Below, one piece after another: positions 9,250 to 43,841 of a stretch of DNA of 64,000 nt. Both the position numbers and the translations under genes were made by a program. Source of the DNA: Arenicellales bacterium (GTDB taxonomy: Bacteria > Pseudomonadota > Gammaproteobacteria > Arenicellales > CBDCFT01); contig OZ244198.1 of the NCBI GenBank assembly GCA_965216735.1, forward strand, positions 4,725,628 through 4,789,627, read 5' to 3'. How positions within the stretch are numbered: the stretch's first letter is position 1; each line of letters starts with the position of its first letter. The notes under the pieces were generated by a model, which saw only the letters and a list, made by a program, of their open reading frames with translations, was not told the origin of the DNA and did not search any database.

Positions 9250-9274
9250 AGACGGTTTTAGATAACGCTGGGTT

Positions 9275-14743: not shown

Positions 14744-14946
14744 TATTTAATAATTTCGAACGAGTAGACTGCAAACCTCTCTGGGGTATGTTAGGGGGGG
14801 ATGCGGCTGAGTTCCCAAATACACCCGGCTCGGCGCGCATCTTTTCTAGCACGTCGGTGCCGCGAATTTAGTTCCGACGCCTTATCTTCCCGTCATTTCT
14901 GTTCGCCTTGAAAAACACATTGTTTAAGGCGTGAGACGTGAATTTA

Positions 14947-15285: not shown

Positions 15286-15362
15286 AGTTTATCTCCAACG
15301 CCCAAAATTAGAAAATTCATTAGAGGCGAGGCGTATTTGCCTCTGACGAATTAAGAGAAATA

Positions 15363-15827: not shown

Positions 15828-15843
15828 TTTCTATCTAAAAAGA

Positions 15844-20148: not shown

Positions 20149-20422
20149 TTTTTTCACTTTTCTATGCGGTCGAAGACAGAGCACCACGGGTTTACCCGTG
20201 GGTGAATGAGCAACGCTGTTGTTCATCGCGGTCTGCAGTTAAAGTGATGAACAGCAGCGGCAGCCCGAAGGGCTGTAACAGTAAGCACCCCGGCTTTAGC
20301 CGGGGGAATCTATTCCTTCTATTGGTTCGATTCATAGAATTCTTTGACACCGTTCGATACGCACCTGATAGCCCTGCAGAAATATTGCATGATGGATTCT
20401 ATATAACTAGCTAGATCGTAGA

Positions 20423-20635: not shown

Positions 20636-20911
20636 CTAGTTAATAACGCCTCCGGTAGTTGTTGGCGCGGGTGTTGTTGCAGGTGCAGCGGTCGTGGTGG
20701 GTGCGGTCGTAGTTGCTGGGGCCGAGGTGGTCGTTACAACTGTAGTTGTTTGCGCATGCGCTGGAAGAACAACACTATCCACAATAGGTCTTGTCCACTC
20801 GCGGGGTAACGCCTTAGTAACAACAGCGGTTGCCCCGCCGGTCAGTAAAATGGTCTTTAACGTTTTTCGTCGCTGGCTGGATTTATTTGAGTAGTTCTTT
20901 TCTTGTGTCAC
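20636..20911 (-). CDS. P1: minimal member of the Tat-like-leader family (leader plus a 35-aa Thr/Pro/Ala-rich tail)
   Basis: SQRRKTLKTILLTGGATAVVTKALPREWTRPIVDSVVLPAHAQTT matches the leader of P2-P6. The remainder is TVVTTTSAPATTTAPTTTAAPATTPAPTTTGGVIN. Confidence 0.65.
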   Translation of the reverse strand: MTQEKNYSNKSSQRRKTLKTILLTGGATAVVTKALPREWTRPIVDSVVLPAHAQTTTVVTTTSAPATTTAPTTTAAPATTPAPTTTGGVIN

Positions 20912-26761: not shown

Positions 26762-26765
26762 CGCT

Positions 26766-27989: not shown

Positions 27990-28004
27990 ACAAAGGACAC
28001 TCTG

Positions 28005-28412
28005 ATGACAAAGACGAAAGTATTAATTGTGGACGACGAAGAGGGATTTTGCTGGATGATTAAAAAACGATTGGAAGACACGGGCAAATACGATGTATAC
28101 ACCGAATCTTTCAGTTCACGGACCGTGAGCATGGCAAAGGAAGTCAATCCGGACGCAATTATTTTGGATTTTATGATGCCTGATATGGACGGCGACGAAG
28201 TAGTCGAGAGACTAAGGGAAGATCAAAGTACGGAATCAATTCCAGTCATTTTCTTAACCGCGATTGCAATGAAAGAAGGTAAAGAGGATTCACGGGTAAT
28301 CACTACTGGCAGTAACGTTGTACTGGGGAAACCTGTGTCGTCGGCACTGCTAATGGATACAATCGACGAGGTGATAGCAAGAGGTAGGCAAATAGACTGT
28401 CCCCACCGATGA
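28005..28412 (+). CDS. single-domain response regulator (CheY-like)
   Basis: KVLIVDDEE ... IILDFMMPDMDG ... FLTA, 135 aa. Confidence 0.85.
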   Translation: MTKTKVLIVDDEEGFCWMIKKRLEDTGKYDVYTESFSSRTVSMAKEVNPDAIILDFMMPDMDGDEVVERLREDQSTESIPVIFLTAIAMKEGKEDSRVITTGSNVVLGKPVSSALLMDTIDEVIARGRQIDCPHR

Positions 28413-28482
28413 TGGGTTTGCTATATAATGAAGGTTTTACTCCGTCCTGAGAAGGCGGGGAATTCAAACCTTAGAGATTAAT

Positions 28483-29013
28483 ATGACCCAACTCACCCCG
28501 GGCAACGCTGTGCCCGAATTAAAAGTGAAAACTTTAGATGGATCCGTTTGGAATCTATCAGAGCAAACACCTGAGCATTTTACGATTGTTGTCTTTTACA
28601 GAGGACTACATTGCCCGATATGCGCTAGCTATTTACCTGACATAGAAAGCCGCGTTCGCGCATTTCGGGGGCTCGGTGTTGAAATCATCGCTGTCAGCAG
28701 TGACGGTGAAGCACGCGCTAGAAGTATTAAAGAGGAACTTGGCCTCGATGAATTGACGATAGGCTACGACTTGAGTATAGAAACGGCTAGAGACTGGGGG
28801 CTATACGTTTCTCAGGGAATTGGTAAAAGTTCAAAAGGAATTGAAGAACCCAATCTTTTTATTGAGCCGGGCATTTTCATTATACGACCCGATCAGACAC
28901 TTTATTCCTGTGTTGTTCAAAGCATGCCATTTGCAAGACCGCAGTTTTCGGAAACCCTCGATGCAGTTCAGTTTATTATTACCAACCGCTATCCGGCACG
29001 TGGTGAAGCATAA
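28483..29013 (+). CDS. peroxiredoxin-like (AhpC/TSA-redoxin family) protein
   Basis: FTIVVFYRGLHCPICASYL is a thioredoxin-fold CxxC region typical of peroxiredoxin-like proteins. Confidence 0.7.
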   Translation: MTQLTPGNAVPELKVKTLDGSVWNLSEQTPEHFTIVVFYRGLHCPICASYLPDIESRVRAFRGLGVEIIAVSSDGEARARSIKEELGLDELTIGYDLSIETARDWGLYVSQGIGKSSKGIEEPNLFIEPGIFIIRPDQTLYSCVVQSMPFARPQFSETLDAVQFIITNRYPARGEA

Positions 29014-29513
29014 TAGCGAGCCGATGAATCTTGATAATGGTGCGGCGAACGGGGGCTACAATAAAACCAAACACTCATTGAATTCCACGCCCTGCGGGGA
29101 GAAAGGTCATGCTCTTACTCCTTAAGAACCCTGCTCGGAGGGTCCAATTAACAATTGTTTACATTCCGAATCGCTTGTTGGATTGTGACAAACTGTTTGT
29201 CTAGTGTATAACTAGTCGTGTCCCCGTTTGGGGGGGACAACTTACACAAAGTGTATTGATCGTGTTTTGATCATCGCTTTTTTGGGGGTCTAAATAGCTG
29301 TTGTCTTATTTGGGGTAGGCCAACACTATTTGATTTCGGAAACACGGGGTAAGTTGCGTAGTAGAGCTGCGCAACGGAACTGATTCAATTCCGTATGACA
29401 CGCGGAACTGAATTGGTATTGGGGTAACTCGAATAGTTTAGCCTTCACGTTGCGCGTAACTGGTTTTGATTTGTCAAAGCGGCAAATCTATTTTGGCATT
29501 TGTGGGGGTACAT

Positions 29514-31193
29514 ATGTGTACATGTAATTCTAGAGTTGGAAGGGGGCTATTTTCTTCTCTTTTCCTTACGTTTTTGATGTTTGTGGGAACGATCCAAGCG
29601 CAAGAAGTCGCAAATCCTGATTTGGTTCAATCTTGTGGATTGGATATCGCCCTTGTTCTTGACGAGTCAGGTTCTATTCAGGACCAAAACGCGATTAACG
29701 CCGTTAGGCAAGCCTCGAAATCTTTCGTTGGAGCGCTGAGTGGCACTGGTTCCAGTGTGTCTATTGTTGAATTTAATACCCGTGCAAGAACGGTACTTCC
29801 GTTAACAGAAGTCACGGACAGCTCCATGCAATCTTTTTACGATTACATTGATGCGACTTCGGGTAATCCAGACACTGGATACGATCCCTCGGTTTATACC
29901 AACATGGAACGTGGTACAAACTGGGAAGACGCATTTCGTACAACAGCGAGTAACCAATCCACTCCGTTACTGGTTTTTGTAACTGACGGTGATCCAACAT
30001 TCTGGCTGGTGGATCCGGACAATACGGCAATAGGTGGCGTTGGCTATGACACAGGGAATAACAATGCGGACTCTGCAAACCAGGCGACACCGGTAGCAAA
30101 CGCTATTAAACAAAACGGAACCCATATCTTGATGATAGGTGTGGGCCCGGGTCTTTCTGGTGCCGTACAACAAGGTCGGTTGATGCAAGTATCGGGACCG
30201 GATCTGGTTACGGATTTAACCAGTTTTGATCTAGCTACCACGGATGTTATGGTTGTTTCGGATTTTGCGTCTTCGTTATCGGCCGTTCTCCGGCAAATCG
30301 TTGTATCGCTTTGCGCACCATCCATCACTTTTCAGAAGTTGGCCAAAGATATTGGTGAAAGCGCTTATTCGGTAGAAAGTGGTTGGACCTTTTCGGGTAC
30401 TGTCCAAACGAATGACGGTACTCCCGTTGAATGGATTACGCCGAATGCAGGCAGCACAGCCGCCGAACAATCCGGCCAAACCGATGAAAACGGAGAAATC
30501 ACTTTTCATTGGGTAGCGGACAGCGACGTTGCCTTTACCTGGGACGAAGATTTACAAGACTTTTCCTTTGTGGATGGCCAATGTTCGAAACGGACATTCG
30601 AAAGCGACGGTCATGTGGATTCAACATTCGCCACCATCCCACTGGAAACTTTCGTCGTATCCGACAGTGACTATATCTCTTGTGTGGTGAGGAACGAACG
30701 ACACATTGTGGTCAACACTTGTGACGACGGAAAACCCGCTGGACTCGTGTTTCGTTACGACGGCTCAGGTGCTGAAGATGACACCAATTCGCAACTCACC
30801 AACGAATTAATCGTGGAGGGTGATCCGATGTCAATGGACCCGGTGTTTATTGAAGTCTTCGATCACAAAGGTGTTGTACTATTCGCCGGCACGGTGGGTT
30901 TAAATGACACTTTTCAAGTCTCGGGCACCAAACGGCTCATTCCACCCCGTATGCGCTTCTTAGTGTATGACGCGGAAGGTGGCAGCGTGTTGCAAACGGT
31001 GCAGTTCCATACCTCGTGTTCGCAACCCTTGAATACGGGCGATTCCTTTGGTTCTATCGTACTAGTGGGTGAGACCCAGGTTTCTTCCGGTGGCAATCCA
31101 GGCAAGCCAAATAATGGCGATGGTGACAAGCCGGAAAACCCCGGTAAATCAAAAGGCAAGAAACTCGGTAAGGACAAAGGAAAAAAATCCTAG
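29514..31193 (+). CDS. secreted von Willebrand factor A (vWA) domain protein with a Lys/Gly-rich C-terminal tail
   Basis: Signal MCTCNSRVGRGLFSSLFLTFLMFVGTIQAQE. MIDAS DIALVLDESGSI. The C-terminus is GGNPGKPNNGDGDKPENPGKSKGKKLGKDKGKKS. The ORF track start at 29466 is less likely. Confidence 0.75.
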   Translation: MCTCNSRVGRGLFSSLFLTFLMFVGTIQAQEVANPDLVQSCGLDIALVLDESGSIQDQNAINAVRQASKSFVGALSGTGSSVSIVEFNTRARTVLPLTEVTDSSMQSFYDYIDATSGNPDTGYDPSVYTNMERGTNWEDAFRTTASNQSTPLLVFVTDGDPTFWLVDPDNTAIGGVGYDTGNNNADSANQATPVANAIKQNGTHILMIGVGPGLSGAVQQGRLMQVSGPDLVTDLTSFDLATTDVMVVSDFASSLSAVLRQIVVSLCAPSITFQKLAKDIGESAYSVESGWTFSGTVQTNDGTPVEWITPNAGSTAAEQSGQTDENGEITFHWVADSDVAFTWDEDLQDFSFVDGQCSKRTFESDGHVDSTFATIPLETFVVSDSDYISCVVRNERHIVVNTCDDGKPAGLVFRYDGSGAEDDTNSQLTNELIVEGDPMSMDPVFIEVFDHKGVVLFAGTVGLNDTFQVSGTKRLIPPRMRFLVYDAEGGSVLQTVQFHTSCSQPLNTGDSFGSIVLVGETQVSSGGNPGKPNNGDGDKPENPGKSKGKKLGKDKGKKS

Positions 31194-32230: not shown

Positions 32231-32779
32231 GTGAGAAAACAAAAAAAATCGAGTAATGCACGTAGAAAATTACTTAAACTAGCTTCGTACGGTACATTGG
32301 GTGCCACTACAGTCCCGGCAACATGGGTAAAGCCGATCATTGACGTGGTGGTTCTACCGGCGCACGCACAAACCACGGGACCCGTTGATCCAACTAACCC
32401 GACTAATCCAACTAATCCGACTAATCCAACGACCCCACCACCGACGACACCGGCACCGAATCAGTGCACTGTCTCGACCATACCGGCCGCATCAATTGGT
32501 GCATGCCCGACGTCGCCCAACATTCAGGCAGCGTGTACAGTCGATTTAAATATTTCCGGTTGCGAGCCATTTGCATCGGTCGACGGACAATGGATTTGCA
32601 ATGGATCCAACGTAGGTGCCTATGGAAGTTTCACGCTCGATGCGAATGGTGGGTTATCGGTGACACGGCCGTATCCGGGTGTGCATGGTGGACGCTGTTG
32701 CGAACTGGTGATTGATATCAATGGTCAGGTTTTTCGCGACCTGTTTTTTGTGGCAGACGGGGGTAGTTGCCAAATATAG
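32231..32779 (+). CDS. P2: Tat-like-leader family protein with (PTN)n linker and a 9-Cys C-terminal domain
   Basis: GTG start preceded by taAGGGAGac. NARRKLLKLASYGTLGATTVPATWVKPIIDVVVLPAHAQTT leader, then PTNPTNPTNPTNPTTPPPTTPAP, then a Cys-rich domain. Confidence 0.7.
   Translation: MRKQKKSSNARRKLLKLASYGTLGATTVPATWVKPIIDVVVLPAHAQTTGPVDPTNPTNPTNPTNPTTPPPTTPAPNQCTVSTIPAASIGACPTSPNIQAACTVDLNISGCEPFASVDGQWICNGSNVGAYGSFTLDANGGLSVTRPYPGVHGGRCCELVIDINGQVFRDLFFVADGGSCQI
32390..32434 (+). repeat. in-frame 9-bp tandem repeat (ccRacWaaY, about 4.5 copies) encoding (PTN)n in P2
   Basis: ccaactaac ccgactaat ccaactaat ccgactaat ccaacgacc, read directly. Confidence 0.9.
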
Positions 32780-32929
32780 CATCGGTGTGCGCTTCGAACG
32801 TGCAGTTTGCACTATTCGTTGGCGTTGTTTGACGCAATAATCTGCAAGCCGTCAATTGAACGGAGCGCATACCCCAACACTATCTCCAAAAATACTTGGA
32901 TTAGAGAACCGATGCGTGACGGTAGCGTC

Positions 32930-33583
32930 TCACCGAACAGGTAGCTGATTTTCGGCATTCTTCGAGTATCCGTAACAATCGAAGTCCGCTTCGAAAAGCT
33001 GGCGTACGATTTCAGTTGTCGTTTCGTCGTAGTATTCCGCTATCTCACGGTCATCCCTCATCGGATGCCGGTAAGTATTGAATTGGGGGAAGCGACGGTT
33101 TATGTGTAATGCCGACGCGACAGGTCGAATTGCATATGGAAGCCGTTCGAAGTGGGCCACATAATCGCAGATATCTACTCCATCGAGTTGGGTGTAGCAC
33201 ACTTGTGGTAGGTAATGCGATCCCTTCTGGTGGGCGGCGGCGGTAGCTAGCTCGGGTAGCGACAGGACGAAATTTCTGAAATTTCCAAACCGCTGCACGT
33301 GATGATCGTATAAGTAGTAATAAACTGAAACTAGACGCGAAAAAGGATTTCGCACGACGGTAAACTTGTAGTAACTATCAAATATATCACTGCCCAATTT
33401 ACGTTGAATAACTTTTGCTGTAGCGTGTTGTAAATAGATACCCTCTTCAGGGTCCCAGCCAAATAAGGAATCGTGATCGGCCACTCTATGGTCGCGTTTT
33501 TCATCCCGTAACCAGCGCTCCACCGAAACACCGGCTGTCTTTCCAATATGAAAGTAGATACATTTATGTTCGTGAAAAACCAT
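32930..33583 (-). CDS. sulfotransferase-family protein (PAPS-dependent type)
   Basis: FHIGKTAGVSVERWL resembles the 5'-PSB loop (hIPKTGGTS). FTVVRNPFSRLVSVYYY resembles the RNPxxRxxS 3'-PB motif. Confidence 0.7.
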   Translation of the reverse strand: MVFHEHKCIYFHIGKTAGVSVERWLRDEKRDHRVADHDSLFGWDPEEGIYLQHATAKVIQRKLGSDIFDSYYKFTVVRNPFSRLVSVYYYLYDHHVQRFGNFRNFVLSLPELATAAAHQKGSHYLPQVCYTQLDGVDICDYVAHFERLPYAIRPVASALHINRRFPQFNTYRHPMRDDREIAEYYDETTTEIVRQLFEADFDCYGYSKNAENQLPVR

Positions 33584-33668
33584 ATTTCCATACCAAGTTG
33601 TCGTGTCGGCGTATTAGGCTCTACTATAGCGGCGCTACCATAGACTTGTTAAACACACATATTAACCG

Positions 33669-33941
33669 ATGAATAAAAGCGATATTCCCGTGATTGCCGG
33701 CGACTACCGTCTGGAGGAATTCGATGGCGAACTCTTGTTGTATCACCCGGCGACGACGAGAACCTTACATATGAACGACTCGGCGTCGCTCATCTGGAAC
33801 CTGTGTGATGGAAAGCGAACAATTCAAGATATTGTGACTACTCTCGCCGAAGCGTATCCCGAATCCGCTGAAAGCATTGAGAACGATGTAACGCAGACAA
33901 TTAAAAATCTTTTTGACAATGGCGTTTTATCCCTCGACTAA
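33669..33941 (+). CDS. PqqD-family protein (RiPP recognition element, RRE)
   Basis: 90 aa. ...EFDGELLLYHPATTRTLHMNDSASLIWNLCDGKRTIQDIVTTLAEAYPESAESIENDVTQTIKNLFDNGVL matches the PqqD pattern throughout. Confidence 0.8.
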   Translation: MNKSDIPVIAGDYRLEEFDGELLLYHPATTRTLHMNDSASLIWNLCDGKRTIQDIVTTLAEAYPESAESIENDVTQTIKNLFDNGVLSLD

Positions 33942-33950
33942 AAATTAAAG

Positions 33951-35795
33951 ATGAAGACGTGGTACGTTGAGTTCGGGGGTCATTCGGCCGCCATTCAATA
34001 CGAAGACAATTCCGTCGCCGATCTTCTTGAATTTCTGTTCGTAGACCTTCCTGCAACTTCTGCAATTACTCCGGTAGAAACCTTTCGAATCATGGCGGAC
34101 CCGTCATGGAAACACTGTGAATTGCGTTGGAGTGATGGCCATAGCACCCGTGTGAATTCTCGTTGTGAATTGGCGCTCCAAGTCGTATCCGAAGTTCTTT
34201 TTACATTGATCAATAAATGTAGGGGAGGTCACATAATTCATGCCGCGGCCGTGCACAAAGATAACATGGGTATCTTGATGCCGGGCAAAAGCGGTGCTGG
34301 AAAATCGACTCTATGTGCATGGTTCGTAAAAAACGGCTATACATATCTGACAGACGAAGCGATTTGTTTTCCAACGGGGCAGTCGCGATTTCATTCTTTT
34401 ACACGTCCAATTCATTTTAAGCCGGGTTCTACCTCCGCTCTGAATACATTGTTGAGCGGTGAGAATATCAATGATTTATCTGAAACAGATGGTCATACGA
34501 AGATTGTTCCGCACCGTAGCTTAAATGAAAATTGGAAAAGCGCGGTTCCAGATGTGTGTTTACTGTTATTTCCGGAGTATGCAACCGACCATGACTTCAG
34601 CTTGGAACCTCTTAAACCCGCGCAAGCGAGCATGGCGCTCATGGGTGTGCATGCCAATGCCCGTAATTTAGAACACCATGGGTTTCATGAGATTACTAAC
34701 ATCGCGCGATCAACACCCGCCTTTCGATTATGCTACAGCGATTACACCCAACTCGAAAATAGACTTGATTTATTGGTAGAGCTTGTCTTGGAACGATCCG
34801 CCGATGCCACGCATTTGGTGGAATTATTCCGTTCGATGCAAACCCATCGTGTCATAGATATTCCTTCGAAACAGGAGACAACCGAAAAAGCCACCCACCC
34901 CATACCGGAGCCAACGAAATCCGGTTCCAAGAAAAAACTATGTCTAGGCATGGCTACGTATGACGACTACGACGGTGTTTACTTTTCCGTTCAAGCCATT
35001 CGTATGTTTCATCCCGAAATAACCCAAGACACCGAGATTTTGGTAATCGATAATAATCCGACAGGGGCTTGCAGTCTGGCATTGAAGAAGCTCGACGGTT
35101 CAATAAAGGGTTACCGCTATATGCCCAATGCGAATGTTCAAGGTACCGCAATCAGGGATTTGGTTTTCCAATATGCCAATGCCGACTATGTTTTGTGCAT
35201 GGACTCCCATGTGTTTCTAGAGCCCGGTGCTATCTGCAAATTCATCGATTACTTGGATCAACATCCTGACTGCATGGATTTACTACAAGGCCCCATGTTG
35301 TATGACGACCAATCTACGGTGATGACGCATTTTGAACCGCAATGGCGCCAGGGTATGTACGGTACTTGGGCGCACGACGAACGCGGACAAGACAAAGACA
35401 ACCCACCGTTTGACATTCCCATGCAAGGATTGGGTTTGTTTGGTTGTCGAAAACAGGCGTGGTTAGGATTCAACAAACACTTTCGTGGATTTGGTGGTGA
35501 AGAGGGATATATTCACGAAAAGTTTCGTCAAGCAGGGCGTCAAACCTTGTGTCTACCTTTTCTACGTTGGCTGCATCGTTTCGAACGCCCTAATGGTGTT
35601 CCCTACCGACTTAAATGGGAAGACCGCATATATAACTACTGGGTGGGATTTAGCGAATTGAGTATGGACCCGGCGCCGATGATCGAACATTTTCGTGGTC
35701 ACCTGGGCAAACAAGTGACGGATAATATCTTGGCTGATATCCAGGCGGTCTTTAAAGAAAAAGCAATATTAAAACAAAACATTCCATCAAAATGA
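33951..35795 (+). CDS. fusion protein: N-terminal HPr-kinase-like P-loop domain plus C-terminal family-2-type glycosyltransferase domain
   Basis: IIHAAAVHKDNMGILMPGKSGAGKSTLCAWFVKNGYTYLTDE is the HprK-like Walker A region (nt 34284-34310). From about aa 328, KKLCLGMATYDDYDGVYFSVQAIRM ... ILVIDNNP ... YVLCMDSHVF is a GT-A fold with a D-S-H metal motif at nt 35202-35210. Confidence 0.75.
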   Translation: MKTWYVEFGGHSAAIQYEDNSVADLLEFLFVDLPATSAITPVETFRIMADPSWKHCELRWSDGHSTRVNSRCELALQVVSEVLFTLINKCRGGHIIHAAAVHKDNMGILMPGKSGAGKSTLCAWFVKNGYTYLTDEAICFPTGQSRFHSFTRPIHFKPGSTSALNTLLSGENINDLSETDGHTKIVPHRSLNENWKSAVPDVCLLLFPEYATDHDFSLEPLKPAQASMALMGVHANARNLEHHGFHEITNIARSTPAFRLCYSDYTQLENRLDLLVELVLERSADATHLVELFRSMQTHRVIDIPSKQETTEKATHPIPEPTKSGSKKKLCLGMATYDDYDGVYFSVQAIRMFHPEITQDTEILVIDNNPTGACSLALKKLDGSIKGYRYMPNANVQGTAIRDLVFQYANADYVLCMDSHVFLEPGAICKFIDYLDQHPDCMDLLQGPMLYDDQSTVMTHFEPQWRQGMYGTWAHDERGQDKDNPPFDIPMQGLGLFGCRKQAWLGFNKHFRGFGGEEGYIHEKFRQAGRQTLCLPFLRWLHRFERPNGVPYRLKWEDRIYNYWVGFSELSMDPAPMIEHFRGHLGKQVTDNILADIQAVFKEKAILKQNIPSK

Positions 35796-36310
35796 GTATT
35801 AGACGTCTTTTCATTACCCGACTCATCGGAATGCTCAGCGCCATTCCGATCTTGGGTAACGCCTCACTGCGCGCAAATACCGCTATTGCGGATTCCCCCA
35901 GCTCGGTACAAGATCAATTCCGAATTCTCGTCGACACCTGTGTGCCTCGGGACGACTATCCGGGCGCTGTCGACGAGGGAATCGATAGAAAACTATTGAG
36001 CGAAATTTCGGCGAACCCGATTCATTTGAAACGCGTACACGATTTGCTAATTGATATTGATAAACTGTCGCGTAGTCAATTCAAACAGGTTTTTGTCGAT
36101 CTCGAGTTGTCTAATCGTACCCGTCTACTAGATAGACTATTGAATGATAAAACACTGGTTCCTGACCAACGTGCAGAATTAAGTTACCTACGTGCACGTG
36201 TACTGCAACTGTTTTATACCTCCGAATCCGGATTTGCCATGCTGGATTACCATCCACCCAGTCATGGCGGTTACCCGGACTACGCAAAACCCTTAGATCA
36301 ACTAAGCTAA
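35792..36310 (+). CDS. Tat-signal small subunit (gluconate 2-dehydrogenase subunit-3-like) partnering the GMC flavoprotein
   Basis: MSIRRLFITRLIGMLSAIPILGNASLRANTAIA is a twin-arginine signal. 172 aa. The ATGA overlap with the upstream gene implies translational coupling. It lies directly upstream of the GMC oxidoreductase. Confidence 0.6.
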   Translation: MSIRRLFITRLIGMLSAIPILGNASLRANTAIADSPSSVQDQFRILVDTCVPRDDYPGAVDEGIDRKLLSEISANPIHLKRVHDLLIDIDKLSRSQFKQVFVDLELSNRTRLLDRLLNDKTLVPDQRAELSYLRARVLQLFYTSESGFAMLDYHPPSHGGYPDYAKPLDQLS

Positions 36311-36315
36311 AGCGA

Positions 36316-37956
36316 ATGCCGCAACCTGATTACGATGCCATCGTCATCGGTGCGGGCGCGGGCGGTGGATTCGCGGCGATGGCCCTGGCCGAACGTGGTG
36401 CGAAAGTATTGTCAATCGAACGCGGCAAACGTTTCAATTACAAAACCGACTATCCCATGAACTATCCTGACTGGGAATCGCGTTTGCATCCGTTGTCCAG
36501 TGTTGTGGAAACGTTTCAGCCTGTCGCTACACCGGAAATAGCCAAAACCGATAGCGACATTTGTTCCCGAATCACCGGGTCCCCATCACCACACGCACCT
36601 GGACGACGCGGACAGTTTCAGTATTTACGTTCTATCGGCGTGGGCGGATCCACCTTGCACTATCAAGGGGAAGCACACCGCTTTCCAAGCCACGCTTTTA
36701 GGTCGAAAACCCTATTTGGTTGGGGTGAAGACTGGCCCTTGTTCTATACCGAGTTGGAACCGTACTACGACCAGGTGGAAAAAATCCTGGGCGTCGCCGG
36801 GAATCCGGGTAATCCTTTTAAGGATAAACGTGGAGCATTTCCAACCCCTACCCACTCGTTATCCACCAAAAGCCAGCTCGTCGAGTTTGGCACAAAAAAA
36901 TTGGGTTGGTCGTTACTGCCGAATACGTTGGCGTTGCCCAGCCGCTCTATCGACAACCGTATGCCGTGTCAACATTCCGGCGGTTGTGTTCAAGGTTGTA
37001 TTTTCGGTGCCAAATCCAGTGTCGATCAAACCGCCATCGTGCATGGCGAAAAAACCGGAAACCTGACCGTGTTACCCGAAGCGCGGGTGGTGCAACTGGA
37101 GACGAATAAGAAAGGGGGTGTGACCGGTGTTGTGCTGGTACACAATAAAAAACGTCGACGCATTAGTGCACACAAGTACTTCCTTGCCTTGGGTGCGATT
37201 GAAACGCCTCGTTTGTTGTTGGCCAGTGCATCGAGCTCCCATCCGAATGGTATTGGCAATGCGCACGATCAGGTAGGTCGTTATCTTATGGAAACCATCA
37301 TAGCCAGCATGGAAATATTGGTCGAACAACCGGTGCATGCATACAAAGGCCCGCCCATCGACGCACGTATCTGGGATTTCAATTACCCATCAAAAGATTC
37401 CCGTGTGCGTTCGGGCTATGTATTGGGAGTGTCTGGCACATCGGCAGGCCCCCACGGACCGGTGTCTTACGCGAATAGTGTCCAGGGATTGGGTTTAGAA
37501 CACAAACGGAAGGTGCGTGACATCTTTGGCCGCAATGTCCAACTGTTCGGCATCGCGGAACACATGCCCCACTACGATAATCGATTAAGGCTAGGTGACA
37601 AGAAAGACGCCGATGGCGTGCCACTGGTAACCGTATTCAGCGACTACTCATTCGATGATCGCGAAACACTACGCGAAATGATCAATAAAATCGATACCTT
37701 GGCAGATGCTTGTGGTTTTTTAAACAAAGTGCGTTTGCATTCGAGCTACGACTCTCCATCTTCCACCCATGTCGCCGGCACCTGCCGTATGGGCAGTGAT
37801 CCGGAAAAAGCAGTAACCGATGAGTTGGGCAAAGTGTTTGGCGTCGGCAATCTTTACATTACCGACGCCAGCGTCTTACCGAGTCAGGGAGCGGGCGATT
37901 CCCCGTCCCTGACTATTCAAGCCTTGGCGTTACGAACAGTTCGAATGTTGTCGTGA
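36316..37956 (+). CDS. GMC-family FAD oxidoreductase (no signal peptide of its own)
   Basis: YDAIVIGAGAGGGFAAMALAERGAKV FAD motif. C-terminal GTCRMGSDPEKAVTDELGKVFGVGNLYITDASVLP GMC signature. Confidence 0.85.
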   Translation: MPQPDYDAIVIGAGAGGGFAAMALAERGAKVLSIERGKRFNYKTDYPMNYPDWESRLHPLSSVVETFQPVATPEIAKTDSDICSRITGSPSPHAPGRRGQFQYLRSIGVGGSTLHYQGEAHRFPSHAFRSKTLFGWGEDWPLFYTELEPYYDQVEKILGVAGNPGNPFKDKRGAFPTPTHSLSTKSQLVEFGTKKLGWSLLPNTLALPSRSIDNRMPCQHSGGCVQGCIFGAKSSVDQTAIVHGEKTGNLTVLPEARVVQLETNKKGGVTGVVLVHNKKRRRISAHKYFLALGAIETPRLLLASASSSHPNGIGNAHDQVGRYLMETIIASMEILVEQPVHAYKGPPIDARIWDFNYPSKDSRVRSGYVLGVSGTSAGPHGPVSYANSVQGLGLEHKRKVRDIFGRNVQLFGIAEHMPHYDNRLRLGDKKDADGVPLVTVFSDYSFDDRETLREMINKIDTLADACGFLNKVRLHSSYDSPSSTHVAGTCRMGSDPEKAVTDELGKVFGVGNLYITDASVLPSQGAGDSPSLTIQALALRTVRMLS

Positions 37957-37990
37957 CGTGTAACGCTTTGCTGATAGCCAGATCAACGGA

Positions 37991-38614
37991 TTAAAGGGAG
38001 CAAAATGGCTCACTTGGGCACCCGCTCCCTACCGATAGTGTTCCAGAACTAGCGTAAGTCCCGGACAACGTGAAATCCGCGCCACTCGCTGAAACGCTAT
38101 TAACGGCGATGGATTCCATGCCAAGAATGCAGTTATTGACGTCGACCATGTCCACGGCGCCACCACCCACCACGCCACTTGCGGTGAGGAACGAACCATT
38201 GCCCAGCACTGCCAACGTTGCCGTGAAGTTCGTGCCGTTTACCTCAATACACATGTCAGCAGAATCCTGCGGCAATCCACCGGCATACGCATTTGGAATG
38301 ACTGTATCCAGGATGGTGGCGTATAAACCTTCTTGCGGTTGATCGATACTATTAATAGGAGTTATGGTGACGGAGAACTGACCTCTGAAATTGATGATTG
38401 GCAATGTCGTAGTTGGCGCGGGTGTGGTAGGCACCACGGTGGTTTGCGCATGAGCAGGCAGTATCACACTGTCCACCACCGGTTTGGTCCATTTGGTCGG
38501 TAGTGTTTGGCTGGCCGCAACAGCGGCACCGCTACCGACTAAGAGTCTCTTTAACGCTTTGCGTCGTGCTGTCGGTTGCTCCGGTGGTTGTGATGAATCA
38601 AACGCTTGTTTCAT
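37991..38614 (-). CDS. P3: Tat-like-leader family secreted protein, 4-Cys beta-rich domain
   Basis: I chose the start at MKQAFDSS (ATG 38614) because AAGGAGAA lies upstream and it aligns with P4. Leader TARRKALKRLLVGSGAAVAASQTLPTKWTKPVVDSVILPAHAQTTVVPTTPAPTTT. Confidence 0.75.
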   Translation of the reverse strand: MKQAFDSSQPPEQPTARRKALKRLLVGSGAAVAASQTLPTKWTKPVVDSVILPAHAQTTVVPTTPAPTTTLPIINFRGQFSVTITPINSIDQPQEGLYATILDTVIPNAYAGGLPQDSADMCIEVNGTNFTATLAVLGNGSFLTASGVVGGGAVDMVDVNNCILGMESIAVNSVSASGADFTLSGTYASSGTLSVGSGCPSEPFCSL

Positions 38615-38822
38615 AAGATTTCTCCTTTTCTTCAGTGCGGTTTTAATCAAACCTCGGTGATATCGTAGCTTCATTCATTGCTAAATTTACCGATTTAGGG
38701 TGCCGATGATTCCGATTCTCCGTCTGTCTATCCAATCGCCAACGTTAGCGATAGTGAGCAAAATGTAGAGCATGAACCATGGCTAAAATTGTTGTTTCGT
38801 GTCATAAGGTCAATACTCGTTC

Positions 38823-39452
38823 TTAAGTAAAGATTGGGATACAGTTTCCCGGATCACTGGGGCAACCGTTACCGGTTGGCAGCATTCCGCTAGCGGTAAA
38901 GAAACCGGACATCGTGAAATCCGCTCCACCGGGTGACACGCTATTCACCGAAAGAAATGTGTCGGATACTTCACAAGCGTTCGGGTTGTCCATAATCACT
39001 GGACCTCCACCTACAGTGCCACTGGCGGTCAAGAAAATGGGATCAGTAGCAGTAGGACGAGTAAAGTCAAATCTCACAGCCGCGGTGAAACTGGTACCGT
39101 CCACTGCAATACACATGTCACCGGATTGTGTCGAAGTACCAGCGTGTGCTTTTGGAACGATTGAATCCAGTATGGCAAACAGGCTTTCTGGCTCGTTATT
39201 AATTGTTACTATAGCGTTTGCTGAAACAGGACCCCTGAAATTGATTACTGGTGCCGCCGTCGTAGTGGGCACCACGGTGGTTTGCGCATGCGCCGGTAGT
39301 ATCACACTGTCCACCACTGGTTTGGTCCACTTGGTCGGTAGTGTTTGGCTGGCCGCGACAGCAGCACCGCTACCGACTAAGAGTTTCTTTAACGCTTTTC
39401 GCCGCGCCGTCGGTTGCTCCGGCGGTTGTGATAAATCAAACGTTTGTTTCAT
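38823..39452 (-). CDS. P4: Tat-like-leader family secreted protein
   Basis: The leader differs from P3 at 3 residues out of about 62. The mature part is diverged but keeps 4 Cys (DMCIAV, NACEVS, GNGCPSDPGNC). Confidence 0.75.
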   Translation of the reverse strand: MKQTFDLSQPPEQPTARRKALKKLLVGSGAAVAASQTLPTKWTKPVVDSVILPAHAQTTVVPTTTAAPVINFRGPVSANAIVTINNEPESLFAILDSIVPKAHAGTSTQSGDMCIAVDGTSFTAAVRFDFTRPTATDPIFLTASGTVGGGPVIMDNPNACEVSDTFLSVNSVSPGGADFTMSGFFTASGMLPTGNGCPSDPGNCIPIFT

Positions 39453-39625
39453 AAGGTTTCCCCTTCTCGTCGATAATATTCTTAATCAAAACTTGGTTAC
39501 GTCATGATTTTATGGACTACGCTTTAGTGATTCCCGAAAAATATATGATAGCTTTGTTTGTTCCATACCGCTCAAGTCCTCAGATAGGTAGGGGTATTTG
39601 TAGGAACTAGGTGCTAAGCTGATGT

Positions 39626-40240
39626 TTATTCGCAACCAACGAAAGGATCAGTGGGACAACCGCTACCGACCGGTAATACACCACTCGCGTTGAAGAGACC
39701 CGATAGCGTGTAGTCGGCACCAGCGGTTGATGCACTATTGACCGACAGATCTGTTGGGGTAGAGCGACACCCATCGACATCGGTCATGGTGACTGAACCA
39801 CCCCCTACTATGCCACTCGCTGTAAAAATATCAGTATCAACTACTAGTGTTGCGGTGAAGCTGGTGCCATTGACTTCAATGCACATGTCTGCGGGTCTCT
39901 GAGTGAATCCACCGGCGTGCGCATTGGGAATGACCGTATCCAGGATGGTGGCGTACAAACCTTCTTGCGGTTGGTCGATACTATTAATAATAGGATTGTT
40001 TTGTTGGCCAGCAGTAAATTGACCTCTGAAATTTTGCATAAACACCGTTGTGGTAGGCACCACGGTGGTTTGTGCATGAGCCGGTAATATCACACTGTCC
40101 ACTACCGGTTTGGTCCATTTTGTGGGTAAGGCGTGACTGGCGGCTACTGCGGCGCCGCCACCGACTAACAACTTTTTTAAAGCCTTTCGCCGAGTAGGTG
40201 TGTGGTCTTTGGATACGACTTGGTTTTCTGATGAACTCAT
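39626..40240 (-). CDS. P5: Tat-like-leader family secreted protein
   Basis: I chose the start at MSSSENQ (GGGAGG upstream). Leader TRRKALKKLLVGGGAAVAASHALPTKWTKPVVDSVILPAHAQTT. The mature domain is close to P6. Confidence 0.75.
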   Translation of the reverse strand: MSSSENQVVSKDHTPTRRKALKKLLVGGGAAVAASHALPTKWTKPVVDSVILPAHAQTTVVPTTTVFMQNFRGQFTAGQQNNPIINSIDQPQEGLYATILDTVIPNAHAGGFTQRPADMCIEVNGTSFTATLVVDTDIFTASGIVGGGSVTMTDVDGCRSTPTDLSVNSASTAGADYTLSGLFNASGVLPVGSGCPTDPFVGCE

Positions 40241-40508
40241 CAACGGCCTCCCATTCATGAAATTTTGATGTTTCTACTCAACCACTTATGAGATATGTAT
40301 CATAAATATTATCAAATAGCCACAAAACAACATTGTTCGTACTAAGGTTTATTAATATTAGATATTATTAATAAAACACAAATCTATATACCGGCCGATA
40401 CCGTTAGATGACATGAATGACTGTTACAGGAAACTTTTTTTGGTGGACGTCATAGTACGCTGACAAATGTCAGAGGCGGAAACCGAATTCCCAAATCGAG
40501 CCCCACTG

Positions 40509-40586
40509 CGTTTGGGACATGATCCAGAAAAAGCGATGGTGACTGAATTCGGCAAGGTGTTCGGCGTCGGTAACCTTTTTATTTCT
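40509..40586 (+). pseudogene. remnant of the 3' end of a second GMC oxidoreductase gene
   Basis: It translates to RLGHDPEKAMVTEFGKVFGVGNLFIS, versus CRMGSDPEKAVTDELGKVFGVGNLYIT at the C-terminus of 36316..37956. There is no upstream ORF. The position relative to P6 mirrors that of the intact GMC gene relative to P3. Confidence 0.65.
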
Positions 40587-40621
40587 CAATTTAGGTATGG
40601 GTGACGGGGCTAAGCTATTGT

Positions 40622-41197
40622 TTAATCACAACCAACAATAGGATCAGTCGGACAACCGCTACCTGCCGGCAACATACCACTCGTGCTGTAAAAACCCGAT
40701 AACGTGTAGTCGGCACCAGCGGATGATGCACTATTGACAGTCAACTCTGTTGGCACAGAAGTACACCCATCGACATCGGTCAAGGTAACCGGACCTCCGC
40801 CGACCGTACCACTCGCCGTGAATAAAATATCATTGTTTACTAACAGTGTTGCGGTGAAACTGGTGCCATTGACTTCAATACACATGTCGGCCGGTGACAT
40901 ACGAAATCCGGCATGCGCTTTTGGAATTACCGTATCCAGGATGGTGGCGTATAAACCTTCTTGCGGTTGGTCGATGCTACCAAAGTTTATGTCAACGGAG
41001 AACTGGCCCCTGAAATTTTGCATAAACACCGTTGTGGTAGGCACCACGGTGGTTTGTGCATGAGCCGGCAGTAGGACACTGTCCACCACCGGTTTGGTCC
41101 ATGTGGCCGGTAGCTGGGTTGCACCGACCACACCCCCCGCCAAGCCCAACAACGCCCTACGACGTGCCGTCGGAATACGCTGTTTATCTTCTTGCAT
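40622..41197 (-). CDS. P6: Tat-like-leader family secreted protein
   Basis: I chose the start at MQEDKQRIP (GGAGACGGAGAG upstream). Leader TARRRALLGLAGGVVGATQLPATWTKPVVDSVLLPAHAQTT. The ORF extends to 41260. Confidence 0.75.
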   Translation of the reverse strand: MQEDKQRIPTARRRALLGLAGGVVGATQLPATWTKPVVDSVLLPAHAQTTVVPTTTVFMQNFRGQFSVDINFGSIDQPQEGLYATILDTVIPKAHAGFRMSPADMCIEVNGTSFTATLLVNNDILFTASGTVGGGPVTLTDVDGCTSVPTELTVNSASSAGADYTLSGFYSTSGMLPAGSGCPTDPIVGCD

Positions 41198-41376
41198 CTC
41201 TCCGTCTCCCCATAAAGTGTCGAATTTTCTAAAACCCGGCTTTACAACGACAGGTTTCATTTAAAACGGGCACAACGAAGGAGCCCGCTCTCTGCTTGGT
41301 GTCCAATGAATTATCAGACATTCCTTCGTGATAGTTGCTACTGGAAAGCAGTTAAACCAATGACAGCGACGAGCGC

Positions 41377-42534
41377 ATGACCCATTTGGGCTATAATTTA
41401 AGTGTAAAACTGCGGGGACTAAGCCATATGGTGGAACGATCACAGGAGGACAAAGTATCGGCCGAGATTGTCGAGAGGATTTACCGCGACATTTCTACCC
41501 TCGATCTGCCTGATTTACTTAAACAAATAGCGAGTCTCATCGGCGTCGCTGAAGTCGCCATCTACACCGCGCCGCCCGGTTCAGAACAATTCCAGTCTGT
41601 CATTGGCGGATGTATTGAAGACAGCGTTCATCAACAATATGTCGATACGTATCAGCACGGTGACGTCCAAATACAACGACTGTTGCGTACTAAACATATC
41701 GATTTTCTAACTGGGGAAGATCTAACGACTTTTGAAGAACTCAAACATTGTTGTGTCCACAATGATTACCTAAGACCGAACGGTATTGATTCACAACTGG
41801 TCTACGCAATGCATGGGGAGCATGGTCATAGGCGGACGTTCGTCGCTATGAGGGAGTGCGAGGCCGGACCTTATCAGGATTGGCAAATCGCTCTATTCAA
41901 GGCGATCGCAGGAAAAATCAAAGACAGTCTTAACCTGCGCGATACGATACACCAACTTCACTTCGATAATACTATATCTAACCTAGTACTGGAGAGCGCA
42001 AGCGTCGGACTTGCTGTGTTGAATGATGAGTTTGTTCCTGTTTATGTAAACGAGGTGTTTCGTAATATCGTAAAACAAACGAAATGTCTCGATCTACAAA
42101 ACGGTCGCATCCGCTGCAACAATGAATACGACAAAACGCTGACACAGTTACTTCAAAATGCAATGATTGGTCAATCTGGCAGTATGTGTCTACAAAGAAA
42201 CGGCACAATGACTAGATTAGAAGTCACTCGGTTTATCGATTCATTTGACGAAGATTTATTGTTTTCATCTGATGCTCGAATTCTCTTGTTACTGCGGCAA
42301 GAACGAGCGATAAAAAAGTTTGATCTTGTTGCGATTAAACATCACTTGGGTATTTCACATGCCGAATCACGGCTTGTTTTTCACCTCGTAAATGGAGGCA
42401 CGATCAATAGCTACGCCACTCAGTGGCGCGTCAGTACGCACACAGCCAGAAACCAACTGAAATCGGTTTTTAACAAGACAGGACTTCATTCACAAAAAGA
42501 GTTGGTAGCCAAGATATATCTTGATCTTGGTTGA
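41377..42534 (+). CDS. LuxR-family (C-terminal HTH) transcriptional regulator with an uncharacterised N-terminal sensory region
   Basis: C-terminal HLGISHAESRLVFHLVNGGTINSYATQWRVSTHTARNQLKSVFNKTGLHSQKELV is a GerE/LuxR-type HTH. An alternative start exists at 41428. Divergent from P6. Confidence 0.7.
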   Translation: MTHLGYNLSVKLRGLSHMVERSQEDKVSAEIVERIYRDISTLDLPDLLKQIASLIGVAEVAIYTAPPGSEQFQSVIGGCIEDSVHQQYVDTYQHGDVQIQRLLRTKHIDFLTGEDLTTFEELKHCCVHNDYLRPNGIDSQLVYAMHGEHGHRRTFVAMRECEAGPYQDWQIALFKAIAGKIKDSLNLRDTIHQLHFDNTISNLVLESASVGLAVLNDEFVPVYVNEVFRNIVKQTKCLDLQNGRIRCNNEYDKTLTQLLQNAMIGQSGSMCLQRNGTMTRLEVTRFIDSFDEDLLFSSDARILLLLRQERAIKKFDLVAIKHHLGISHAESRLVFHLVNGGTINSYATQWRVSTHTARNQLKSVFNKTGLHSQKELVAKIYLDLG

Positions 42535-42671
42535 AACGGTCGTTAAGAAAGCTTGGTTTAGTTCGTGTATGAACGATGACCTGCCTTCGAACGGCTAAAT
42601 CGTTTGCGTCGTTTTGGATGTTGTTGCGAACGCCGCACAATACGGTGAACACGTTTCGGAAAAGAGTATAA

Positions 42672-43841
42672 CTAGTTATCAACAGGGGCTTGGTTGCGAA
42701 TACGATACAGGGTATACCGTAGCGTGGAACGTATACGTTGAATCATCCAAAATCCAATACGCGTCCAATGCCGTATACACCGGATCGGTCCGGAGACGTC
42801 CTGCTCCGGTGGTACGCCGTAGTACAAGTGCCACCACCAGGCCGGTGGCCAAACGATGCTTCTTAGATACTTTAAACTGCGTCGATAGTTGCGGATTGAC
42901 CACGGCACACTGGACAGTGTGGGAATACCCCGACCCGCGCCCGATGGAGCGGGCACAGTGGGCGGCGATATTCTGCGCTGTAATATCGGCGGCATCGGGG
43001 AAACGTAGTGTAAACAACGTATGGTGTTTTCGATGATCGGATGGTTCTGTTTAAGCGAAAGCCAATCGATGTCCTCATCAAAATGCGCACAGTAAGCATA
43101 AACGTCTACAATGGATATAAGCTTTGTTTCCATCACAGGCTCTGCTAAATGACGGCACAAGTGCTTCAACATATCCGCATGGCCGAGATGCTGGGCAGAT
43201 ACTTCGCTGACCGAGTAATTTTGAACTTCACTCATGAGGTTTTTCATTGAGATAGAGGCGCGGGCGTCCGGAGCAATCGCGTCGCGGTGGACCTCGACGC
43301 TGATAGCGAGTCCGTCAAACTCTTTCTTGGCGATGGCCATGTGATGATGATCGAACTTTACGCCGGGTCTAACTAAAGACGCACCACTGTAACCGAGTGA
43401 GCCCAACAGTTGCTGGGCCCGGTTGCATTTATCTTCGTCCACCAAGAGATCGATATCCGACATCGGTCTCAATTCCGGTGCGGGATAAACGGTGTAAGCC
43501 AGTGCTGCACCTTTCAAAACAATAACGGAAATATTCTGACTCTCTAGCTTTTGTAATATCTCGATGAGCGCGTGTGTGCGAACTTTTGTCGCATGCCGAT
43601 GACGTAGCGCCAACGATTTCAGCTGTAGTTCAGTGTCATTAGGAATTACGATGCCGAGTTGTTTGAGGTGCCGGTGCAGCAGCGGTGCCATACCATGTTG
43701 TTCGGCACGTTGGGCCAGTCCCTGCCAAACACTTTTGTCCTTAGCGAGTTGGTTTATAGATGTGACACGTTGATCATCCAGCTCCAGACAGGAGCAAGCG
43801 CGCAACAGGCGAGTAGATGAAGGCAAATCTTGACGTTGCAC
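42672..43841 (-). CDS. nucleotidyltransferase-family protein (NTP_transf_5 / PF14907-like)
   Basis: VIVLKGAALAYTVYPAPELRPMSDIDLLVDEDKCNRAQQLLGSLGY matches the LKG ... R.m.DIDLLV signature of this family. Confidence 0.7.
   Translation of the reverse strand: MQRQDLPSSTRLLRACSCLELDDQRVTSINQLAKDKSVWQGLAQRAEQHGMAPLLHRHLKQLGIVIPNDTELQLKSLALRHRHATKVRTHALIEILQKLESQNISVIVLKGAALAYTVYPAPELRPMSDIDLLVDEDKCNRAQQLLGSLGYSGASLVRPGVKFDHHHMAIAKKEFDGLAISVEVHRDAIAPDARASISMKNLMSEVQNYSVSEVSAQHLGHADMLKHLCRHLAEPVMETKLISIVDVYAYCAHFDEDIDWLSLKQNHPIIENTIRCLHYVSPMPPILQRRISPPTVPAPSGAGRGIPTLSSVPWSIRNYRRSLKYLRSIVWPPAWWWHLYYGVPPEQDVSGPIRCIRHWTRIGFWMIQRIRSTLRYTLYRIRNQAPVDN

Follow-up and report, generated by a model that had tools for sequence, protein, structure and literature searches.

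The 64-kb stretch of DNA analyzed here (the window), positions 4,725,628 to 4,789,627 of contig OZ244198.1 (assembly GCA_965216735.1) from an Arenicellales bacterium, carries a gene cluster in which a PqqD-family recognition element of the kind used in pathways for peptides that are made on the ribosome and modified after translation (RiPPs), an HprK-like kinase fused to a glycosyltransferase (GT), and a nucleotidyltransferase-fold protein are encoded near a family of proteins with a leader of the twin-arginine translocation (Tat) type. We regard this locus as probably a leader-guided, cyclase-less modification system for exported peptides and proteins, similar to the pathways for linear polyphosphorylated peptides (LPPs) in Bacillota, which have no cyclase and combine a RiPP recognition element (RRE) with an HprK-like kinase and an NTP transferase (Popov et al. 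2026, May; PMC13381572). The leader-family genes likely encode the substrates of the enzyme set.

Window open reading frames (ORFs) were annotated with Pfam and NCBIfam, and all coordinates are those of the window. On the plus strand, the gene for a 90-aa PqqD-family RRE (33669-33941; Pfam PqqD, E 9e-17) is followed after a 9-nt gap by an ORF (33951-35795) encoding the 614-aa fusion of an HprK-like kinase with a GT-A glycosyltransferase, a call based on Pfam and NCBIfam, a PDB profile match and an AlphaFold2 (AF2) model. This ORF overlaps by 4 nt (ATGA) the gene for a small subunit of Gluconate_2-dh3 type that carries a Tat signal of its own (35792-36310, plus strand; Pfam E 1e-7), and the gene for a GMC-family FAD oxidoreductase (36316-37956, plus strand; Pfam GMC_oxred_N/C) begins 5 nt further on. 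Divergent from the pqqD-like gene, across an 85-nt gap, lies the gene for a Sulfotransfer_2-family sulfotransferase, an accessory tailoring enzyme (32930-33583, minus strand; Pfam E 7e-12), and an NTP_transf_5 (PF14907) nucleotidyltransferase-fold protein, the proposed partner of the kinase, is encoded at 42672-43841 on the minus strand (Pfam E 5e-45). The original prediction, made from the letters alone, had named this operon order, the divergent sulfotransferase and the PF14907-like protein, and all were recovered; on checking the enzymes against domain profiles, Sulfotransfer_2, PqqD, Glycos_transf_2 and NTP_transf_5 were matched, and the HprK match was below cut-off but otherwise backed. 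Pfam scans that took in most window ORFs of at least 150 aa, the rest being out-of-frame ORFs nested in scanned genes, revealed no lasso cyclase, leader protease, radical SAM, YcaO or lanthipeptide enzyme, as had been predicted, and no S26/S24 peptidase.

Five paralogues of one secreted family (P genes) had been predicted in the region, and we find them as a plus-strand gene (32231-32779) encoding a 182-aa protein with leader, (PTN)n/Thr-Pro linker and Cys-rich domain, and as a minus-strand tandem array of four long forms, in agreement with the DNA repeats. The array runs from 37991-38674 through 38823-39452 (leader, 39285-39452; W42-A56 box, 39285-39329) and 39626-40258 (P4, the subject of an AF2 model and of the family search) to 40622-41260. 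The longest-ORF starts of three P genes lie probably 6-21 codons too far 5', as judged from the homologues P0210, P0360 and P0361; the probable true start is M21 in the first gene of the array, as in P0210, and M22 in the last, as in P0361. A sixth, short-form member lies outside the region of the original prediction, at 20636-20911 on the minus strand, and encodes a 91-aa precursor with a Tat-type leader, a WTRPIVDSVVLPAHA box and a Thr/Ala/Pro-rich core (phmmer E 1e-14 to the P4 leader). In the close relative L001/L002, described below, an additional leader-family gene (8172-8765, minus strand) separates the first P gene from the sulfotransferase gene, and the tandem array numbers only three genes; precursor copy number therefore turns over fast.

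The leaders of this family appear to join a Tat-type export signal to a known RRE-binding motif. In 311 distinct sequences, an invariant R-R is followed by any residue, [L/A/V/I], Leu in 82% (RR+3) and Lys in 74% (RR+4), and then by an uncharged, Gly/Ala-rich stretch with a median length of 15 residues and a mean Kyte-Doolittle hydropathy of 1.47. Next comes L-P-x-x and the box, W(100)-T-K-P(100)-V-V/I/L(99)-D-S-V-V-L-P(100)-A(91)-H(98)-A(100), with percentages in brackets, which are to be read against a search pattern that fixed the W, both Pro and the final Ala and limited the A and H to small residue sets; its general form is W-x-x-P-x-V-x-x-V-x-x-P-A-H-A. The first half of the leader reads as a textbook Tat motif (RR-x-Φ-L-K), and motif inspection found the features of a Tat substrate, namely RR-x-Φ-L-K, a moderately hydrophobic h-region and an A-x-A site, with A-H-A having the form of a signal-peptidase-I type site. 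Past A-H-A the consensus is [Q/A]-[T/A]-[S/T]-P, with Ser/Thr at position +3 in 97% of 301 sequences, compared with 4-5% at +1 and +4. Across three phyla or classes, conservation is far higher in the box than in the cores. RREs bind [Y/W]xxPx[L/V/I/F/A] (PMC13381572), and the W-x-x-P-x-V of the box is this motif, the one published for lasso and LPP RREs, which supports the earlier proposal that the conserved N-terminal module is the RRE ligand. The PqqD-like protein for its part has sequence matches in the PDB to PqqD (5sxy, E 3e-4) and to the lasso RREs TbiB1 and TfuB1.

The cores past the box contain 30% Thr against a background of 4.4%, and their lengths, 6-267 aa overall, are bimodal, with short forms of 10-40 aa (poly-Thr or TTTAAP repeats) and long forms of 100-200 aa. 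The long forms of the window have a short TTVVPTTT linker and then a folded domain: in the AF2 model of P4 (mean predicted local distance difference test score, pLDDT, 67.7) leader and linker are disordered and residues ~120-200 form a beta-sandwich with pLDDT >90, for which Foldseek returned no significant PDB fold match (best E 0.07). Substrates elsewhere are mostly short Thr-rich peptides of 50-130 aa, so that the original proposal of full-length Tat-exported proteins as substrates holds for one of two size classes. Its proposal of the Thr/Pro linker as acceptor likewise needs to be widened, the most conserved candidate acceptor being the Ser/Thr three residues past A-H-A and not the linker alone. 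An exhaustive search with P4 returned 1969 cluster representatives; leader and cargo gave no Pfam or NCBIfam match, and all 89 database relatives found with the leader profile are labeled 'hypothetical'.

Several further features of the cargo were observed. The core of P0175 has only 9 residues (QASPPTV…), and in four loci (L003, L025, L026 and L062) the leader-family core is an Ig-like Cys-pair domain followed by poly-Thr. Long-form relatives (P0252, P0285, P0306, P0344, P0351, P0366 and the product of 9001-9915 in L087) end in Peptidase_S74 (PF13884; SDRNIKENF…), a domain that acts as an intramolecular chaperone of phage tail spikes, which hints that such cargo may form trimeric fibres. In the four tandem P genes (37991-41260) and in P0211-P0351, a second leader-like box occurs ~55-60 residues downstream within the long-form cargo, where LDTVIPNAHAGG echoes VDSVILPAHAQT; it is kept in remote homologues (VPKVHAD, IPEAHAAP, VPSAHAAP), falls in a low-confidence loop past helix 102-109 of the P4 model, and could be an additional cleavage or recognition site.

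The association between leader and enzymes extends well beyond the window. With the fusion as the only query we retrieved 80 genome loci, 81 with the window, whose hosts are Hyphomicrobiales and further Alphaproteobacteria, Desulfobulbales, a cable bacterium among them, and Arenicellales; we searched these loci with the window proteins; L001 and L002 are one close relative, 90% identical to and syntenic with the window, retrieved twice. Matches were found to PqqD in 55/81 loci, to NTP_transf_5 in 45/81, to the P-family leader in 41-47 of 81 and to the sulfotransferase in 5/81, and the GMC pair and regulator occurred in 3/81, which are the window and its one close relative (L001/L002). A hidden Markov model of the leader detected 90 ORFs across 48 of these 81 fusion-chosen loci. 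Of 86 leader ORFs, 71 lie 5' of the fusion on the same strand, and in 41 loci among those of 79 other genomes, with 1-4 leader genes each, a median of 113 nt separates the end of the closest leader ORF from the fusion. Presence of PqqD and presence of a leader are associated (counts 32/6/4/11; Fisher p = 1e-4, uncorrected for phylogeny). Clustering of the neighboring ORFs in the 80 related loci revealed no other family in more than six loci and no conserved protease, exporter or cyclase. This survey thus places leader-family genes directly 5' of fusion homologues in Alpha- and Gammaproteobacteria and in Desulfobacterota, as would be expected of substrates. The original prediction had gone further and supposed that a tailoring set had been recruited to another substrate class; leader-family genes as likely substrates stand, but a local recruitment event does not, because the family is large and conserved, with 1969 cluster representatives matching P4.

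Within the fusion, the kinase part spans ~aa 90-280 (P-loop 112-120, D135-E136) and the GT part ~aa 325-560 (VIDN 365-368; DxH, D418/H420). Pfam Hpr_kinase_C matches residues 96-140 at E 4.7e-4, under the Pfam cut-off, and TIGR04352 HprK_rel_A matches at E 3e-26, with 92 bits against a cut-off of 200; a profile built from 22 homologues matches solved HprK/P structures (1ko7, E 2.7e-5), and the P-loop and D135-E136, which aligns to the catalytic DD pair of HprK, are invariant. Based on the HprK_rel_A match, the structure-profile match and these invariant residues, we consider the HPr-kinase call sound. Glycos_transf_2 covers residues 337-440 (Pfam E 8e-10), D418 and H420 are invariant among homologues, and Pfam detected no lectin domain. 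When the AF2 model of the fusion was compared with the PDB by Foldseek, ranks 1-49 were all polypeptide GalNAc-transferases (E 1.5e-11 to 5e-9), so that in the model the GT domain most closely resembles mucin-type polypeptide GalNAc-transferases, of which it is a candidate relative. More than 1100 fusion homologues were found, many with additional GT25 or LicD domains, and one (L021, 8996-11599) has an N-terminal DUF6065 (E 1.5e-86) ahead of kinase::GT2. In seven loci from Desulfobulbales and other deltaproteobacteria (L003, L018, L023, L025, L026, L032 and L062) a second, stand-alone HprK-like protein of ~290 aa is encoded beside PqqD and NTP_transf_5; no leader-family gene was found in L018, L023 and L032.

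Domain fusions in other genomes tie the remaining enzymes to the kinase::GT2 protein. A single protein in L037 combines kinase, GT2, GT25 and Sulfotransfer_2 domains, L034 encodes a GT2::NTP_transf_5 fusion, L047 an NTP_transf_5::PqqD fusion and L019 a kinase::GT2::LicD fusion, and in L082 (Mesorhizobium) a Sulfotransfer_2::NTP_transf_5 gene adjoins a leader gene, the kinase::GT2 fusion and PqqD; a member in L035 has a weak match to FkbM-type methyltransferases (Methyltransf_21/22, E 1e-4 to 4e-4, under Pfam cut-offs). From these fusions we infer that the sulfotransferase, PqqD, kinase::GT2 fusion and NTP_transf_5 protein of the window form one pathway. A PDB sequence search found no relatives of the NTP_transf_5 protein or of the sulfotransferase. 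The NTP_transf_5 protein carries an invariant D129-x-D131; in pseudomycoidin biosynthesis the addition of one or two hexoses to the phosphate depends on PsmN, which belongs to the NTP-transferase family and has D134/D136 as essential residues (PMC6993621).

These observations suggest how the system might work. In the cytoplasm, the PqqD RRE would bind the W-x-x-P-x-V box (peptide WTKPVVDSVILPAHA) and present the substrate to the 614-aa fusion, whose HprK-like domain would phosphorylate a hydroxyl, most likely that of the conserved +3 Ser/Thr and possibly those of residues in the Thr tract. The NTP_transf_5 protein and the GT-A domain would attach sugar to the phosphate, to the Thr-rich tract itself or to both, and accessory domains would elaborate the glycan, in the Arenicellales lineage through sulfation by the sulfotransferase with 3'-phosphoadenosine 5'-phosphosulfate (PAPS). 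That modification would precede export, as originally proposed, follows from the enzymes having no signal peptide and from ATP, UDP-sugar and PAPS being cytoplasmic cosubstrates. Tat would then export the bulky or folded product, and housekeeping signal peptidase I would cleave after A-H-A; between them they would stand in for the dedicated peptidase and exporter found in LPP clusters. Such a pathway would yield mucin-like phospho/glyco(sulfo)peptides and proteins located in the envelope or matrix.

Several points weigh against this interpretation. Binding, phosphorylation, glycosylation, sulfation, Tat export and cleavage after A-H-A are all inferred, the Tat assignment comes from motif inspection (Pfam TAT_signal reaches just E 0.15 on one member), and both Hpr_kinase_C and HprK_rel_A score under their curated cut-offs. 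The GT model is of only moderate quality (pLDDT 77.5), and the non-peptide GT2 enzyme GlfT2 scores only ~300-fold worse than the best match. Membership of PsmN and LppN in PF14907, the family of the window NTP_transf_5 protein, is a presumption; in the published heterologous system LppN showed no activity, and PsmN may do no more than supply a substrate. As for linkage, 31 of 79 fusion loci have no nearby leader gene, some of them on truncated contigs, and in L004, L009 and L010, all three from Arenicellales, PqqD occurs without a leader gene, a search for an alternative precursor there also finding none; some leader-less loci (Labrys, Yoonia) also have no PqqD. Conversely, four of five independently looked-up leader-family genes have no fusion within 7 kb, and the long-form P genes of L087 and L088 also have none nearby. 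With one of five such genes beside a fusion, adjacency is common as seen from the enzyme and not universal as seen from the precursor, and for the orphans we assume action in trans; scattered precursors occur in other RiPP systems. Short leader-family genes stand as orphans far from a fusion in L083, L084, L085 and L086, one of them beside a transposase.

The orphan genes would sit well with a general O-glycosylation of secreted mucin-like proteins that no leader guides, in which the GT domain would modify Thr-rich tracts unaided, the box would be just an unusual signal-peptide c-region shared by descent and PqqD would, for instance, stabilize an enzyme. The resemblance of the GT model to polypeptide GalNAc-transferases, which need no leader, the Thr-rich cores, which fit plain O-glycosylation, and the four loci that have leader genes without PqqD point the same way, but we consider this explanation unlikely given that the box is conserved far above the cores across such distant hosts and matches the experimentally defined RRE motif W-x-x-P-x-V (PMC13381572), that PqqD and leader co-vary across loci, and that NTP_transf_5::PqqD fusions exist. 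The enzymes might instead build or decorate a non-protein polymer, such as an exopolysaccharide or a teichoic-acid-like chain, as has been suspected for the HPr-rel-A genes, with the leader proteins as co-regulated secreted partners. That the kinase is closest to HprK_rel_A, that GT25, LicD, FkbM and sulfotransferase domains typically belong to glycan pathways, and that LPP clusters are located in capsule loci (PMC13381572) would agree with such a role, to which we nevertheless give still less credence: a PqqD RRE has no known role beyond peptide binding, in 41 loci co-oriented precursor genes lie directly 5', the related loci share no recurrent polymerase, flippase or exporter, and the +3 Ser/Thr is conserved in the leader family.

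HPr-kinase homologues, nucleotidyltransferases and GT2s are also common accessory genes of lasso-peptide clusters (PMC7533575, PMC6993621), and the locus could in principle be an incomplete or split lasso cluster whose cyclase, B2 protease and short precursor are encoded elsewhere. We rejected this possibility, the most improbable of the three by a wide margin, since no Asn-synthetase-like or transglutaminase-like protein is encoded among the scanned ORFs of the window or recurs in the 80 loci, the cores, at 6-267 aa and Thr-rich, lack lasso ring logic, the cluster is more than 20 kb from both window ends, and the syntenic relative L001 has the same content.

The leader-guided, LPP-like system that we favor can be extended, tentatively, to a bacterial 'mucin' pathway in which the RiPP box is placed within a Tat signal and PqqD doubles as RRE and export-proofreading chaperone, holding peptides or entire folded proteins back in the cytoplasm until the kinase::GT fusion, the nucleotidyltransferase-fold partner and the sulfotransferase have installed phospho-, glyco- and sulfo-groups; Tat would be the chosen route since its cargo is too bulky or has already folded. 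If correct, this would bring RiPP logic to full-length proteins and constitute a bacterial route of mucin-type O-glycosylation. If the LPP-like system itself is real, the cyclase-less RRE/kinase/nucleotidyltransferase pathway of Firmicutes would have a large counterpart, as yet without a name, among Gram-negative bacteria of sea and soil, including sponge-associated Arenicellales, Hyphomicrobiales and relatives of cable bacteria, and a general export signal would be shown to accommodate RiPP-style leader recognition and to bring it to folded proteins. It also offers a working hypothesis for thousands of small Thr-rich 'hypothetical' proteins; the W-x-x-P-x-V…A-H-A-x-x-S/T box and its PqqD partner are a directly testable RRE-leader pair, and the leader could be usable as a tag that steers phospho- or glyco-modification to exported proteins.

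The oxidoreductase pair of the operon follows the long-form cargo and not the modification enzymes, because in two metagenomic contigs, L087 (6708-9915) and L088 (6705-9585), long-form P genes are divergent from a Gluconate_2-dh3 and GMC pair with no kinase, PqqD or nucleotidyltransferase gene within 9 kb. The GMC orthologues of L087 and L088 are 59% identical to that of the window, and the small subunit is 39% identical (L087). Since only the small subunit begins with a Tat-type signal (MSIRRLFITRL…) and the flavoprotein lacks any signal peptide, the pair is presumably co-exported; with low confidence, we see in it a lineage-specific periplasmic partner or a substrate relation with the long-form cargo, and as such a partner it would possibly oxidize the cargo sugar. 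Between two P genes, a 45-aa ORF (40467-40604, plus strand) matches GMC residues 489-516 (phmmer E 7e-7) and is probably left over from a duplication or rearrangement. The gene at 41377-42534 (plus strand), originally called a LuxR-type regulator, exists as an ORF, but the label is weak: the sole NCBIfam match, to BagY/FevT at E 0.002, covers the last 48 residues (aa 335-382) with a LuxR-type C-terminal helix-turn-helix, no Pfam or PDB sequence match was found, and among the fusion-chosen loci this putative regulator is conserved only in L001.

Elsewhere in the window, a bifunctional ATP-sulfurylase/APS-kinase (PAPS synthase) is encoded at 49929-51641 on the minus strand (Pfam ATP-sulfurylase, E 2e-83; APS_kinase, E 2e-60), 6 kb from the cluster, and by this proximity could supply the donor for the sulfotransferase. 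A second sulfur-related gene encodes a CitMHS/Na-sulfate-symporter-like transporter (53924-55720, minus strand), and an 813-aa protein with an FGE-sulfatase domain is encoded at 6877-9318 (minus strand). A Peptidase_M48 gene (19423-20226, minus strand) lies on the same strand as the short precursor, 410 nt 3' of it, and L087 has an M48 gene (14736-15863) ~5 kb from its P gene; the proximity of M48 to P genes may be coincidence. On the 5' side, the block 24350-31193 is syntenic with 1-6520 of L001 and encodes a PAS/GAF histidine kinase, a second histidine kinase, a peroxiredoxin and a VWA plus DUF7467 protein. No MsbA-like exporter adjoins the cluster or recurs in related loci, and the ABC-2 pair at 55882-57584 is of another type and 12 kb away.

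The original prediction knew of no described system with this architecture, a claim overtaken by the LPPs, which follow the same logic (PMC13381572). Their precursors, of 35-200 aa, share the N-terminus YxxPxVLxHQxIxFETxxS; cleavage occurs after T-1, core Ser3, the residue on which LppK acts, becomes polyphosphorylated, and the clusters encode an MsbA-like exporter and, dedicated to leader cleavage, a signal peptidase I of the archaeal/SipW type (PMC13381572). LPP clusters and the window both lack a macrolactam cyclase and both have a discrete PqqD-type RRE, an HprK-like kinase (in the window, a domain of the fusion) and an NTP transferase, with one to three precursor genes per LPP cluster that likewise encode 35-200 aa with a conserved N-terminus and a variable C-terminus. 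In both, [Y/W]xxPxV stands ~10 residues before a signal-peptidase-type site, the motif-to-cleavage-site spacing being 16 residues in LPPs and 15 here, and the phosphorylated Ser3 of LPPs may have its counterpart in the Ser/Thr at core position 3 in 97% of the window family, a layout that is analogous in a differing sequence. In contrast to LPPs, the window family has no dedicated SipW-like peptidase or MsbA-like exporter, places a Tat-type RR signal before the box, has A-H-A for F-E-T and W for Y, and has a kinase fused to a GT-A glycosyltransferase and cores that are Thr-rich or contain folded domains; its hosts are Pseudomonadota and Desulfobacterota, whereas the LPP authors described LPPs as restricted to Bacillota (PMC13381572).

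Lasso clusters, which can be accompanied by HPr-kinase homologues, nucleotidyltransferases and GT2s (PMC7533575), share with the window a PqqD-type RRE (B1) and the [Y/W]xxP leader motif, present in the 311 leaders. In pseudomycoidin biosynthesis PsmK phosphorylates a Ser of the precursor, PsmK and PadeK both targeting the terminal Ser (PMC6993621). As in the paeninodin and pseudomycoidin pathways, where the target of an HprK homologue is a Ser hydroxyl on a ribosomal precursor, its linear form included, which is phosphorylated alongside a PqqD-type B1 RRE (PMC6993621), a kinase of this kind is encoded here with an RRE, but the window has no cyclase or B2 protease, its substrate is not a lasso, and a canonical GT-A domain is added. 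The HPr-rel-A system (TIGR04352 HprK_rel_A and TIGR04353 PqqD_rel_X) has the closest kinase, which pairs with PqqD, and several of our loci also pair a stand-alone kinase with NTP_transf_5. Membership was rejected on scores under the NCBIfam equivalog cut-offs, the kinases reaching 83-95 bits (window, 92) against 200 and PqqD 25 bits against 35; by sequence, the window kinase and PqqD appear to be a separate subfamily. Membership in the SynChlorMet (SCM) cassette, which combines radical SAM/SPASM maturases with ScmC and ScmD, was likewise rejected, since similarity to ScmC/ScmD is just weak and the window encodes no radical SAM enzyme among its scanned ORFs.

The GT27 enzymes of animals and Toxoplasma gave the best structural matches to the modeled GT domain and share with it the D-x-H metal motif and acceptor-like Thr/Pro-rich sequences, but the window GT has no lectin domain, is only 13-17% identical, and would act in the cytoplasm and not in the Golgi. 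Glycocins are made by a GT2 (SunS/ThuS) that modifies a leader-bearing ribosomal precursor, and their clusters encode C39-peptidase ABC exporters and thiol-disulfide proteins, without RRE or kinase. Redox enzyme maturation proteins of the TorD/DmsD type are cytoplasmic proteins that bind a Tat signal peptide until maturation is complete; the window PqqD would likewise be a cytoplasmic signal binder, with no homology to them, so that its likeness to a Tat proofreading chaperone is a speculative analogy. Our literature searches for the combination of HprK-related kinase, PqqD and GT2, for Thr-rich RiPPs and for Tat-linked RiPPs found no Gram-negative counterpart. As a description of the system, a Tat-leader, GT-fused, Gram-negative variant of an LPP-type pathway fits best.

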